Source: an uncultured Lachnospiraceae bacterium | GTDB taxonomy: Bacteria > Bacillota > Clostridia > Lachnospirales > Lachnospiraceae | NCBI GenBank assembly: GCA_947384285.1 | Contig: CANDGI010000013.1 | Location: 8,268-72,267 of the forward strand | Length of the DNA stretch: 64,000 bases | Direction of reading: 5' to 3' | Shown here: positions 4,551-61,747 of the stretch, one piece after another | Position numbering within the stretch: position 1 is the stretch's first letter | How the letters are laid out: the number at the start of each line of letters is the position of its first letter | Translations under genes and position numbers: made by a program | Notes under the pieces: model-generated | Told to the model about the DNA's origin: nothing | What the model saw: only the letters and a program-made list of their open reading frames with translations | Databases searched by the model: none

Positions 4551-4553
4551 CAC

Positions 4554-4646
4554 AGGAGGAAGGCTGATGCGAAGCATTATTCGAAATGCCTTCCGACGAT
4601 TTGCCGCCGGACCAAAAGGAAGGGGGCGTTTCATAAAAAAAGGAGG
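4554..4646 (+). repeat. Dispersed repeat family A, copy A1
   Basis: AGGAGGAAGGCTGATGCGAAGCATTATTCGAAATGCC...GGCGTTTCATAAAAAAAGGAGG; similar copies at 15843, 49499, 61657. Confidence 0.85.
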
Positions 4647-15395: not shown

Positions 15396-15869
15396 ATGAA
15401 AAGATATGTGACAGGTATATTGCTGATGGCATGGATGGCAGTTATTTTTCTTTTTTCTGCCCAAAATGCAACGGAATCCTCTCAGACCAGCCAGTCCGTA
15501 TCCTACCGGATTGCCAAATGGCAGGACAGGCTGCTTGGGCAGGAAAAGACAGAGGAGGAACTGCTCATTCAGGCAGAGAAGATGCAGCTTGTCATCCGCA
15601 AAGGCGCCCATATGAGCGAGTATGCATTGCTGGCCATTCTTTTCCTGGCGCATTTGGGATGCTATTCATTCAGCAGGAGGAAAACGATCCTTCTGGCATT
15701 GGCGCTGTCTGTGTGTTATGCGGCTGCCGATGAATTCCATCAGCTGTTCGTGCCAGGCCGGGCTGGCAGGTTTGCAGATGTTTGTATTGACGGCATAGGG
15801 AGCCTGGCAGGAATATTTTTTTATTCCATAGTTGTTTTGTGCAGGAAGGATGATGCGAAGCATCATTAG
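15396..15869 (+). CDS. VanZ family membrane protein
   Basis: IRKGAHMSEY and DEFHQLFVPGR motifs. Confidence 0.9.
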   Translation: MKRYVTGILLMAWMAVIFLFSAQNATESSQTSQSVSYRIAKWQDRLLGQEKTEEELLIQAEKMQLVIRKGAHMSEYALLAILFLAHLGCYSFSRRKTILLALALSVCYAAADEFHQLFVPGRAGRFADVCIDGIGSLAGIFFYSIVVLCRKDDAKHH

Positions 15870-15931
15870 GAATGCCTTTTGGTGGTTTGCCGCTGGAGCG
15901 AAGGGAAGGGGCATTTCATGGAAAAAGGAGG
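15843..15931 (+). repeat. Dispersed repeat family A, copy A2 (overlaps vanZ stop)
   Basis: AGGAAGGATGATGCGAAGCATCATTAGGAATGCC...GGCATTTCATGGAAAAAGGAGG. Confidence 0.85.
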
Positions 15932-34416: not shown

Positions 34417-34617
34417 CAGGCATTGGGGAGATTTTTTTATGAAAGTATCCGGTTTCCGCAGCAGGATGCCATGGAGCCTGCCGGACGATAGGTTAAGCGC
34501 GGTAGTATGTTGATTATGAAAGGTGGAGCTTCTGTGGCAGAGAGAACCATGCGGCTTGCAGTACAATAAGCTGCATATCATGAGGTTTCCGGTATGTTCC
34601 ATGGGAATTCCTGGATA
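34417..34617 (+). repeat. Family B repeat, degenerate tandem array (3 units)
   Basis: Units begin ATGAAAG/ATGAGG at 34439, 34516 and 34580; shared TCCGG/CCATG/GCCGGA elements. Confidence 0.7.
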
Positions 34618-42700: not shown

Positions 42701-42771
42701 GTTTACACATGAAAGTCCTCGGTTTCCGCAGCAAGGATAGCCATGGGGACAGCCGGCTGGGCATAATGGAG
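42701..42771 (+). repeat. Family B repeat copy
   Basis: GTTTACACATGAAAGTCCTCGGTTTCCGCAGCAAGGATAGCCATGG..GCCGGCTGGGCATAATGG. Confidence 0.8.
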
Positions 42772-44697: not shown

Positions 44698-44753
44698 CCA
44701 TAGTAAGGATGGCCATCTGGCCCGCCGCAGGGCAGGCAGAGCATGCTGGTGGG
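44698..44753 (+). repeat. Family B repeat, partial copy
   Basis: CCATAGTAAGGATGGCCAT..CCGCCG..GGCAGGC..GCATGCTGG aligns to the 3' two-thirds of the unit. Confidence 0.6.
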
Positions 44754-58807: not shown

Positions 58808-58892
58808 GCAAGGAAACACTTATCGACGAATGCCTCTTTTTGTGCTATGATAATGGATGTATTACCATAGACAACAGAAAGGGGCATTTTTG

Positions 58893-61670
58893 ATGGACGA
58901 ATCATCAGATGATAAGTCAATAAAATATATTACTGCAGGCCTTTTAGCCCATGTGGATGCAGGAAAAACAACCTTATCGGAGGCTCTGCTGTATACTGGC
59001 GGCAGCATCCGCAAGCTGGGACGGGTGGACAACGGGGATGCCTTTTTGGATACCTGCCAATTAGAACGGGCCAGGGGCATTACCATATTTTCCAAACAGG
59101 CGCTGCTGCAGGCCGAAGATATGGTGGTTACGCTTTTGGATACCCCGGGCCATGTGGATTTTTCAGCGGAAATGGAGCGCACCCTGCAGGTTCTTGACTA
59201 TGGAATCCTGGTAATCAGCGGAGCGGACGGCCTGCAGGGCCACACCCGTACCCTGTGGCGGCTGCTGGAAAAATATCAGATTCCGGTATTTCTTTTTGTC
59301 AACAAAATGGATCAGCCAGGAACAGATAAAGAAGCGCTGATGGGACAGCTGCGTGCAGGGCTAGATGGGAACTGCCTGGATTTTACCCAGGCAGATACGG
59401 AAGAATTTTATGAAAATGCAGCCATGTGCGAGGAGGAAGCGCTGGAATATTTTCTGGAGCATGGCAGCCTTAAGAAAGAACAGATTCAGGGAATGATTGC
59501 CAGGAGAAAGCTTTTTCCATGTTTTTTTGGTTCCGCCTTGAAGCTGGCAGGCATCCTGGAATTCCTGGAAGGCTTTGGAACCTATGCCTGTCCCAAGGAA
59601 TATCCCGGGGAATTTGGCGCAAAGGTATTTAAGATAACCAGGGACAGCCAGGGGAACCGCCTTACCTGGCTGAAAATTACCGGGGGAAGCTTGAAAGTAA
59701 AGACAGCGCTTACGGTAAACTCCCCATCATGCCTGGCCAGCCGTCCGGCGGACTCCATGGATGTCCCTGCTATGGAAGCCGGAGGCTTTCATGGTAAACA
59801 GGAAAAAGTAAACCAGATACGCATTTATTCTGGGGAGAAATATGGGATGGTGGATGAAGCAGTTCCCGGGATGGTTTGTGCGGTGACAGGATTGAGCGAT
59901 ACCAGGCCGGGAACCGGGCTTGGAAGGGAGCAGCATGCCATGCCGCCGCTTTTAACGCCGGTGCTGACCTATCGGCTGGATGTCCCAGAAACCTGCGATA
60001 CCGCTGTTATGCTGTCAAACCTGTACCAATTGGAGGAGGAGGAGCCGGAGCTTCATATTGTCTGGGATCAGCAGCTTAAGGAAATACAGGTGCAGATTAT
60101 GGGGGAGGTACAGCTTGAAATCATAAAGAGCCTGATTGCAGAGCGGTTTGGGGTGGAGGTAACCTTTGGGGCAGGAAATATTTTGTACAAAGAAACCATC
60201 GCCCATCCGGTGGAGGGCGCGGGCCATTATGAGCCCCTGCGCCATTATGCAGAGGTGCATCTTTTGCTGGAGCCGGGAGAGCCGGGAAGCGGGCTTGTCT
60301 TTGACACCTGCTGCAGTGAGGATGTGCTGGACAAGAACTGGCAGAGATTGGTATTGACCCATCTGGAGGAAAAAATGCACCGGGGCGTACTGACGGGTTC
60401 TGAGATTACAGATATGAAAATTACGCTGGCTGCAGGCCGCGCCCATCAAAAGCACACAGAGGGAGGGGATTTCCGGCAGGCCACCTACCGGGCGCTGCGG
60501 CAAGGACTGATGGAAGCGGAATCCATCTTGCTGGAGCCATATTATAATTTCCGGCTGGAAGTGCCGGAGTCCATGATCGGCCGGGCGATGACAGATATTG
60601 ACAGGATGCATGGAACCGCAGAACCGCCCCAGATACAAGGGGAGATGGCAGTATTTACCGGCAGCGCCCCGGTGGCAGCTATGGGGGATTACCAGAGGGA
60701 AGTGATTTCTTATACCAGAGGAAATGGAAGGCTTTCCTGCAGCCTGAAAGGATATGAGCCTTGCCATAATTCCAAAGAGGTTATAGAAAAGACAGCTTAT
60801 GACCCGGAGCGTGACCTGGAGAACTCCCCGGATTCTGTATTTTGTGCCCATGGAGCTGGTTTTTTGGTGAAATGGGATGAAGCAAAATCCCATATGCATG
60901 TGGAACTCCCGGATTTTCTGCGGAAAAAAATCCAGGGCAGCATTCCGGTAATGGAAAGGGAGAACCTCAAGGAACAGGCAGGGCGGCAGAAGGATTTGAA
61001 CGAGGAGGCCTGGATCGGGGAAGAGGAAGTGAACGCCATACTCTCCCATACCCTGGATGCCAATAGAAGGGAAAAGCAGCCCGGGAAAAAGGGATTTCAT
61101 AAGAAAAAAAGCGTATCCGCCCAGAGAGCCGCTCCTGTGACCCGCACCTACCAGAGCCAGGAGCCCAAAGAAGAATATATGCTGGTGGATGGCTACAATG
61201 TGATTTTTTCCTGGGAGGATTTGAAGGAGCTGGCGGAAGCAAACATTGACGGGGCAAGGGGAAGGCTCCTTGATATCCTTTCCAACTATCAAGGAGTCCG
61301 CAGATGCAATATGATTGCAGTGTTTGATGCCTACCGGGTGCAGCAGCATAAAACGGAAATCCTGGATTACCATAACATCCTTGTAGTGTTTACCAAGGAG
61401 GCAGAGACTGCGGATCAATATATTGAAAAGTTTGCCCATGAAAATGCCCGGAAATACCGGGTGACCGTGGTAACCTCCGATGGCTTGGAGCAGATTATTA
61501 TCCGGGGCCAGGGCTGCGGGCTGATTTCTGCCAGGGAGTTCCAGGAGGAAATCAAATCATCTATGGAGACAGCCCGGCAGGAATATGAAGGAAAGCAGGA
61601 AAAGAGCAGGAATTATCTCAAGGATGCCATTCCAGAGGAATTTAAGAAAAGGATAAAGGAGGAAGGCTAA
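58893..61670 (+). CDS. TetM/EF-G-like translational GTPase fused to a C-terminal NYN (YacP/Rae1) ribonuclease domain
   Basis: AHVDAGKTT, RGITI, DTPGH, NKMD; C-terminal VDGYN, VFDAY, TADQYIE, VTSD. Confidence 0.9.
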   Translation: MDESSDDKSIKYITAGLLAHVDAGKTTLSEALLYTGGSIRKLGRVDNGDAFLDTCQLERARGITIFSKQALLQAEDMVVTLLDTPGHVDFSAEMERTLQVLDYGILVISGADGLQGHTRTLWRLLEKYQIPVFLFVNKMDQPGTDKEALMGQLRAGLDGNCLDFTQADTEEFYENAAMCEEEALEYFLEHGSLKKEQIQGMIARRKLFPCFFGSALKLAGILEFLEGFGTYACPKEYPGEFGAKVFKITRDSQGNRLTWLKITGGSLKVKTALTVNSPSCLASRPADSMDVPAMEAGGFHGKQEKVNQIRIYSGEKYGMVDEAVPGMVCAVTGLSDTRPGTGLGREQHAMPPLLTPVLTYRLDVPETCDTAVMLSNLYQLEEEEPELHIVWDQQLKEIQVQIMGEVQLEIIKSLIAERFGVEVTFGAGNILYKETIAHPVEGAGHYEPLRHYAEVHLLLEPGEPGSGLVFDTCCSEDVLDKNWQRLVLTHLEEKMHRGVLTGSEITDMKITLAAGRAHQKHTEGGDFRQATYRALRQGLMEAESILLEPYYNFRLEVPESMIGRAMTDIDRMHGTAEPPQIQGEMAVFTGSAPVAAMGDYQREVISYTRGNGRLSCSLKGYEPCHNSKEVIEKTAYDPERDLENSPDSVFCAHGAGFLVKWDEAKSHMHVELPDFLRKKIQGSIPVMERENLKEQAGRQKDLNEEAWIGEEEVNAILSHTLDANRREKQPGKKGFHKKKSVSAQRAAPVTRTYQSQEPKEEYMLVDGYNVIFSWEDLKELAEANIDGARGRLLDILSNYQGVRRCNMIAVFDAYRVQQHKTEILDYHNILVVFTKEAETADQYIEKFAHENARKYRVTVVTSDGLEQIIIRGQGCGLISAREFQEEIKSSMETARQEYEGKQEKSRNYLKDAIPEEFKKRIKEEG
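59714..59799 (-). repeat. Family B repeat copy inside the GTPase coding sequence
   Basis: Reverse complement GTTTACCATGAAAGCCTCCGGCTTCCATAGCAGGGACATCCATGGAGTCCGCCGGACGG.. matches the copies at 34439 and 42701. Confidence 0.8.
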
Positions 61671-61747
61671 TGCGAAGCATTATTAAAATGCCTTCTGACG
61701 ACTTGCCGCCGGAGTGAAGCAAAGGGGCATTTCACTGAAAAAGGAGG
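61657..61747 (+). repeat. Family A, copy A4
   Basis: AGGAGGAAGGCTAATGCGAAGCATTATTAAAATGCC...GGCATTTCACTGAAAAAGGAGG. Confidence 0.85.

Follow-up and report, generated by a model that had tools for sequence, protein, structure and literature searches.

A 64,000-nucleotide (nt) stretch of the genome of an uncultured Lachnospiraceae bacterium (contig CANDGI010000013.1, positions 8,268 to 72,267 of the forward strand; hereafter the window) carries, at positions 58893–61670 on the plus strand, a gene for a translational GTPase that resembles elongation factor G (EF-G) and TetM and ends in a C-terminal NYN domain. Our analysis makes it very probable that the segment at 59715–59792 of this gene represents a selfish repeat, small and without genes of its own, a copy of which inserted into the gene and left an intact protein with one extra loop. 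The insertion corresponds to one full repeat unit lying antisense to the gene (minus strand), as nhmmer matches show, and its net size of 78 nt, or 26 codons (VNSPSCLASRPADSMDVPAMEAGGFH), was determined from the gap in orthologous genes. The repeat family is previously undescribed and has a mode of action that is already known. A first-pass annotation of the window had proposed a phenomenon comparable to the Rickettsia palindromic elements (RPEs) in a Clostridia lineage, creating a new loop in domain II of the GTPase; the proposal is upheld here for a Lachnospiraceae genome in which nine further genes are affected likewise.

The open reading frame (ORF) of the host gene runs from 58857 to 61670 on the plus strand, is open throughout and encodes a protein of 937 residues, the database gene call beginning at Met13 and giving 925 amino acids (aa). 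Based on Pfam matches (GTP_EFTU, EF-G_D2, EFG_III, EFG_IV, EFG_C and NYN_YacP), the protein consists of an EF-Tu-type GTP-binding domain, domains II–V of the EF-G type and a C-terminal YacP/Rae1-type NYN domain. The GTP-binding motifs AHVDAGKTT, DTPGH and NKMD are readable in the sequence. With a G domain followed by domains II, III, IV and V, the protein has the organization of an EF-G/TetM-type translational GTPase, and TetO and TetM are its top relatives among solved structures. The GTPase-NYN architecture is very widespread: approximately 8000 candidates were scored, mostly of 850–960 aa, and the identical Pfam set was present in all of them.

A whole-genome nhmmer search with the profile of the repeat family matched the GTPase gene at 59725–59794 on the minus strand (E=1.7e-15). 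The first profile seed included the GTPase copy itself; when the profile was rebuilt with the entire GTPase gene masked and array units as its sole source, the whole-genome search still found the in-gene copy over model positions 2–71 of 71 (E=5.2e-15, 56.6 bits). The similarity of the in-gene segment to the repeat family is far beyond chance. The segment had been related earlier to intergenic repeats near 34439, 42701 and 44698, and this relationship holds. The reverse complement of the insert stretch aligns with these intergenic stretches both by eye and with MAFFT, and the masked-gene profile matches all three on the plus strand: an intergenic copy at 34438–34498 (E=2.8e-11), followed by a weak second unit at 34514–34581 (E=0.006); an intergenic copy at 42709–42768 that begins with GGTTTACACATGAAAG (E=2.7e-9); and a partial intergenic copy at 44698–44748 that covers model positions 21–71, the hairpin B half of the unit (E=4.3e-10).

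The gene at 59714–59799 reads ACG-GTAAAC...CATG-GTAAAC-AG and is translated as ...KTALT-VNSPSCLASRPADSMDVPAMEAGGFH-GKQEKVNQ..., with junction peptides such as TALTVNSPSCLASR... and ...EAGGFHGK. About 26 residues between KTALT and EKVNQ in an open frame had been expected, and comparison with orthologs gives exactly 26 codons. The earlier observation that GGTAAAC flanks the segment at 79-bp spacing was confirmed as to the spacing, but GGTAAAC turned out to belong to the unit. The left copy (59714–59720, minus strand; GTTTACC on the element strand) is the unit's 3'-terminal junction motif. The right copy (59793–59799, minus strand), which encodes G-K, is the TTAC-containing motif ahead of the unit on the element strand, and its GGTAAA stands in place of two variable native codons, which read GAGAAG (E-K) in the closest species. 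GTTTAC separates the units in every array and closes most single copies at their 3' end, and since this motif is part of the periodic unit, the flanking GGTAAAC need not be a target duplication. The 79-nt distance from one GGTAAAC to the other therefore does not mark the true boundaries of an insertion whose net gain is 78 nt.

The insertion is specific to the lineage of the window's genome. All 28 orthologs aligned from the genomes of relatives show a gap of exactly 26 residues at the insert, and a search of 49 genomes of the genus returned two-part matches (query residues 1–102 and 129/130–234) in 48 of the 48 other species. None of these species has the peptide and most of them also lack the repeat family, as the first-pass annotation would have it for a lineage-specific insertion. 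In the closest species (G042), in which the protein is 81–86% identical in this region, the DNA alignment contains one clean 78-nt gap: CTTACA followed directly by GAGAAGCAG aligns with CTTACG, 78 nt and GGTAAACAG in the window.

Closer relatives of the protein differ in the length of the insert. Members of a cluster of 95%-identical proteins have a longer insert at the same codon, mostly of 44 residues (...SMDVPAMEAGGFHSKPSSSLVIPAMEAGGFH-GKQ), as in P0003, and one protein with a 44-residue insert (P0122) is present on 58 contigs. Inserts of 70 residues, with one further full 26-residue unit, are found in P0126 and P0133. The insert lies at the same codon in 14 cluster members from other assemblies, and there is no insert in P0004 (89% identical) or in P0005 (84%, 'Lachnospiraceae bacterium 3-1'). 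The lengths of 44 and 70 residues correspond to about 1.7 and 2.7 units, and every observed length (26, 44 and 70) is in frame. Judged from the protein, the 18-residue part-unit is without 8 residues (24 nt), which represent the loop and the 3' arm of the second hairpin in the consensus. As in-frame length variants occur at the same codon and insert-free relatives exist, the in-gene copy appears, from these sequences, to behave as a small variable tandem array. The family has the features of a variable tandem repeat like the mycobacterial interspersed repetitive units (MIRUs), with strain polymorphism seen at a single locus, the GTPase. On one 24.5 kb metagenome contig, the GTPase-NYN gene of the P0003 cluster is called as two proteins, P0127 and P0134; this pair comprises a front part of 505 aa with the 44-residue insert and a remainder of 438 aa, and the break lies well downstream of the insert.

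The window belongs to a mouse-gut metagenome-assembled genome (MAG) of 3.23 Mb in 74 contigs, with 45% G+C and 83% completeness. A BLAST search of the insert segment against this genome gave dozens of partial matches, many of them about 78 nt apart. The unit consensus is GTTTAC-TATGAAAGCCTCCGGCTTCCATAG-TAAGGATGGCCATGCGGCCCGCCAGACGGCTGGCTGTGCATGATGGGG, repeated with a period of 77–79 nt in head-to-tail arrays. An iterated nhmmer profile identified 123 copies at 95 loci, of which 75 are single and the others are head-to-tail arrays of 2–4 units, 20 in number (13 double, 6 triple and 1 quadruple). With a three-unit query, the family was detected in 16 of the 49 genomes of the genus and is abundant in four of them, namely the window's own genome, G047, G046 and G013. 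Many mouse-gut Lachnospiraceae MAGs contain the exact core 19-mer, as do Petralouisia muris and a 'Eubacterium sp.' MAG; chance single matches to it also turn up in GC-rich genomes. Neither the in-gene copy nor the arrays matched an Rfam family, the sole match being a chance-level one to Glutamine-II (E=0.1), and our literature searches found no description of this repeat family or of such a family in Lachnospiraceae.

The reverse strand of the consensus is predicted to form two hairpins (-35.4 kcal/mol, z=-4.7). Running RNAalifold on a MAFFT alignment of 63 copies produced almost no consensus structure, and pairing was counted instead on a profile-anchored alignment of 73 copies. Compensatory pairs were observed across these 73 copies; for example, pair 11-17 is CG in 33 and TA in 17 of them. 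Furthermore, three pairs are commonly A.C mismatches, which turn into G.U/G.T on the reverse strand, and this asymmetry suggests that the structure is formed by one strand. The in-gene copy has a decayed folding, with z=-1.2 for the sense strand and -0.5 for its complement. Intergenic copies lie in both orientations relative to the flanking genes (29 versus 23), which argues against a transcript-level role of the family. What we observe is thus a dispersed, short, multi-copy hairpin repeat, as in the RPE-like functional class.

The GTPase is not the only gene with such a copy. A profile scan of the genome for further in-frame copies, which the first-pass annotation had suggested, was conducted as a census of family copies lying wholly within long open frames with Pfam domains on both sides, and orthologs from five relatives were aligned. 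Ten further open frames hold a copy, and nine of them were verified against orthologs as lineage-specific in-frame insertions; a second CAAX protease (L036, C16:32464) stands outside the nine. The inserts absent from the compared orthologs amount to about 30 residues in a topoisomerase, exactly 21 residues in an RluD-like pseudouridine synthase, about 23 residues in the variable linker of a PRTase_2/TRSP protein, about 21 residues in CobD, 26 residues in a CbiJ fusion, 23 residues in a Mem_trans permease and exactly 26 residues in a CAAX protease, and AddB has its insert in a variable linker. In a FAD-dependent protein, an insert of 11 residues (33 nt) contains hairpin A only and is missing from 5 of 5 orthologs. 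The orthologs of this protein were first matched unbroken, and the 11-residue gap in all five ruled out that the copy is a false positive. The insert peptide of the GTPase is common to several of the other genes (PSC.A.RPAG.MAIPAMEA.GFH). The GTPase and the nine other genes are unrelated, keep their frames and have inserts absent from orthologs, in the manner of RPE-carrying genes.

Several other loci were considered in the census and rejected as gene-body insertions. The copies at C4:75533, C5:2175, C6:18786 and C48:20095 are explained by upstream read-through and have Pfam domains on one side only or none. The arrays at C4:75657-75804, C5:2653-2800 and C6:19041-19189 lie directly upstream of genes and are open in frame with them; the downstream genes include a 2-hydroxyacid dehydrogenase and a D-Ala-D-Ala carboxypeptidase, and gene callers could extend such genes with repeat-derived N-termini. 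Different inserts were also noted at the same places in relatives. The G019 orthologs of the topoisomerase, CobD, AddB and PRTase proteins (L172, L187, L200 and L186) have different, longer inserts of 50–70 residues at the same loops as the window's genome, which might represent old copies that have diverged, or else a different repeat family. The Mem_trans ortholog (L223) of the element-rich genome G013 has a different insert of about 20 residues in the same central loop.

The coding properties of the unit are in keeping with its distribution in genes. Reading frames were compared in 69 near-full-length copies that lie outside the eleven intragenic loci. The GTPase uses a reverse-strand frame with the translation PAMEAGGFH, and this one is open in 66 of the 69; for the remaining reverse frames the counts are 46 and 21, and for the forward frames 6–19. 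The unit of 78 nt is a whole number of codons, so that all an antisense copy contributes in the right frame is 26 residues. The nearly always open GTPase-type frame may thus account for the orientation of the intragenic copies, 9 of 11 of which are antisense to their genes. Only about 12% of the loci are intragenic, whereas a crude ORF call puts the coding share of the genome at about 87%, a depletion that would be expected if most intragenic insertions were lost by purifying selection. The intragenic copies are not significantly more diverged than the others (median 37.7 versus 48.2 bits, p=0.26).

The position of the insert in the protein fold was investigated with AlphaFold. Modelled together from an alignment of 61 sequences, the G domain and domain II gave a mean predicted local distance difference test score (pLDDT) of 83.5 and a predicted template modelling score (pTM) of 0.83. 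In this model the insert (model residues 275–300) is a coil between the confident domain II strands 272–275 and 302–305, and apart from the N-terminus, pLDDT falls below 50 only at residues 279–299, within the insert. The structure prediction, a check proposed in the first-pass annotation to see whether the insert maps to a surface loop, came out in favor of its reading, in that the insert is placed as an unstructured loop between beta strands of domain II, a location compatible with the fold as in the RPE-like class. The extra surface loop is probably disordered, as far as the model indicates. In the alignment with TetM, the insert site is the turn between '...RVSEK' and 'EKIKV...'. Unrelated extras of 14–25 residues are found at the same domain II turn in distant orthologs (P0049, P0100 and L027), which suggests that this turn tolerates added length and is naturally prone to changes of length.

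The surroundings of the copies provide some hints about how they move. Of 60 first units, 23 have an exact TTAC ahead of them, where the per-position background is 0.35%, though its last two bases are profile columns 1–2 and only TT is true flank. At the other end, 24 of 62 cases have a TTAC no more than 14 nt from the 3' end, and GTTTAC or a near variant follows most last units. At both junctions that are readable in DNA, the native sequence resembles the unit junction segment GTTTACTATGAAA, with GGTTACT in the FAD-dependent protein gene and TTCTTTCC in the CAAX protease gene. Terminal inverted repeats were not found under any of the four boundary choices, as the consensus ends match at 5–6 of 20 positions, which is chance level; the family thus does not have the terminal inverted repeats of a MITE (miniature inverted-repeat transposable element). 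No parent insertion sequence for the family was found. As a nuclease partner, a GIY-YIG enzyme was also considered and set aside, the own genome having only UvrC and one small unlinked gene of this kind.

In the explanation that we favor, the element is a MIRU/REP-like unit of about 78 nt (REP, repetitive extragenic palindrome) with two hairpins, bounded by TTAC-containing GTTTAC motifs and occurring as single copies and head-to-tail arrays. A copy would have reached the GTPase-NYN gene at a recent point in the ancestry of this species, and may have survived there because it adds a net 26 codons, has no stop in this orientation and frame, and sits in a domain II beta-turn that tolerates length. 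The in-gene copy would then have gone on like the intergenic arrays, gaining or losing units and part-units with only in-frame lengths kept, and the loop would be neutral or nearly neutral. As for the movement itself, our best guess is a single-strand, hairpin-guided insertion beside a TTAC-like site, in which the 3' site is regenerated and arrays can thereby form. A wider form of this idea, which we put forward as speculation and consider unlikely as a whole, is that the family is a relic or passenger of a single-strand, hairpin-guided element that inserts at TTAC-like sites and carries a 3' TTAC, whereby every copy would supply a fresh target and head-to-tail arrays would grow. Owing to its 26-codon period and a frame that is nearly always open, it would then generate strain-variable loops (in-gene variable-number tandem repeats) in housekeeping proteins of gut Lachnospiraceae, and selection would act on some of these loops.

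Several observations weigh against this explanation. The ends of the insert are ambiguous by about 6 nt, and the segment from TTAC to TTAC measures 79 nt against a net gain of 78, so a simple cut-and-paste event fails unless one base was lost. For the 44- and 70-residue forms, the division into units comes from protein sequence only. The source is a short-read MAG of 83% completeness, in which the single unit could be a collapsed version of the commoner 1.7-unit allele. The full-length AlphaFold model is poor (pLDDT 62), and that the insert-bearing protein is made and working is something we infer. No transposase partner was found, as the own genome holds just a 22-bit Y1_Tnp fragment, a negative result that is weakened by the incompleteness of the MAGs. 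Y1 is absent from the element-rich genome G046, Y1 genes have no phyletic correlation with the element across the genus, and six Y1 loci of relatives are without flanking element ends.

With such a fragment only, no correlation and no matching ends, a transposase of the IS200 type or of the REP-associated tyrosine transposase (RAYT) type is unsupported as the mobilizer. The fragment itself is a decayed IS200-type Y1 gene at G000:C59:3720-3953 (L214 1471–1704) with an ORF of 77 aa, and it adjoins a toxin-antitoxin-like gene pair. A partial repeat copy lies 1.2 kb downstream of it, which is probably a coincidence.

Three other explanations of the insert were weighed. If the insert were adaptive, the strain-variable loop would alter the contact of the GTPase-NYN protein with the ribosome or with a partner, under positive or diversifying selection. 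The insert is intact in many independent assemblies and has grown in frame to 44 and 70 residues, and in EF-G-type factors domain II is turned towards the small ribosomal subunit, all of which speaks for such a role. The peptide is, however, a mere translation of a mostly intergenic repeat and recurs in enzymes and membrane proteins of unrelated kinds; a disordered state is predicted for it, 48 of 48 other species in the genus lack it, and purifying selection alone would leave in-frame lengths. We therefore regard adaptation as improbable. A function of the nucleotides rather than of the peptide, with the copy acting inside the gene as a translation pause, an RNase site or a recombination site, would fit the two stable hairpins, the compensatory changes and the strand asymmetry of the consensus. 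Yet much of the pairing is gone from the in-gene copy itself (z=-1.2 and -0.5, compared with -4.7 for the consensus), and the intergenic copies take both orientations (29 versus 23), which makes an RNA- or DNA-level role very improbable.

An artefact, either a repeat mis-assembled into the gene or a chance resemblance, might be suspected in a fragmented MAG of 74 contigs and 83% completeness. Both flanks are nevertheless the same gene in the same frame, the insert is found at the same codon in 14 cluster members from other assemblies, and E=5e-15 was obtained with an independent model; this explanation is effectively refuted.

RPEs are described as short hairpin repeats with an open frame that occur in frame in many housekeeping genes (Ogata et al. 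2000, 2002, as summarized in PMC10969869 and PMC3184786). The family here shares with them a hairpin-forming dispersed repeat with an open frame, copies both between and within unrelated genes, and the addition of a fold-compatible peptide. In contrast, the host of RPEs is an obligate intracellular alphaproteobacterium and the present one is a free-living gut anaerobe (Bacillota, Lachnospiraceae), and the RPE unit measures about 105–150 nt against 78 nt here. The present family also forms head-to-tail arrays, its in-gene unit number is strain-variable, and about 12% of its loci are intragenic. With host phylum and unit length different, the likeness to RPEs is one of analogy only.

MIRUs are the nearest match in size, arrays and polymorphism. 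They are units of 40–100 bp that form direct tandem arrays, are present at some tens of loci and have a strain-variable copy number (Supply et al. 1997, as described in PMC3184786). Unit size, direct arrays, internal GC-rich inverted repeats, open frames and strain polymorphism are all shared with the family here. Two MIRU classes, of 77 and 53 bp, are set apart by an internal deletion of 24 bp, in parallel to the 78- and 54-nt units of the present family. MIRUs differ in phylum and sequence, and they lie mainly between the genes of operons, overlapping gene ends, and not in loops inside enzymes.

The palindromes of REP/bacterial interspersed mosaic element (BIME)-RAYT systems and of IS200/IS605 elements are likewise similar in having no terminal inverted repeats, in hairpins that appear strand-asymmetric and, for part of the copies, in a TTAC motif 5' of the hairpin and at the 3' end; IS608 inserts 3' of TTAC. 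Unlike in REP/RAYT systems, the unit here is longer than a REP, the arrays are direct and not alternating, an exact TTAC stands ahead of no more than 23 of 60 first units, and no RAYT/TnpA with matching ends was found. MITEs, enterobacterial repetitive intergenic consensus (ERIC) sequences, BOX and Correia elements resemble the family as small non-autonomous repeats able to make in-frame fusions, and compared with MITEs it is without terminal inverted repeats, a clear target duplication or a parent insertion sequence. In-frame gene fusions of small repeats are known above all for RPEs, and also for ERIC, BOX and Correia elements (PMC10969869, PMC3184786).

Apart from the repeat family, the GA-cis RNA motif (Rfam RF02987) is present three times in the window, at 4551–4637, 15837–15922 and 61654–61738. 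The last of these begins within the final codons of the GTPase gene and spans the gap to the next gene.

The best-known cases of tiny repeats colonizing protein genes in frame come from the reduced intracellular genomes of Rickettsia and Wolbachia, and the same outcome is now seen in a free-living gut Firmicute. The period of 26 codons is distinctive, and so is the difference in in-gene unit number between near-identical strains, which allows the birth and growth of a protein loop to be traced inside a single species. Annotators should be aware that an odd low-complexity loop in a conserved Lachnospiraceae protein may derive from a repeat, and that a repeat family is not to be taken for granted as 'extragenic'. 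The roughly 95 loci of the family are, moreover, potential strain-typing loci for these mouse-gut bacteria.

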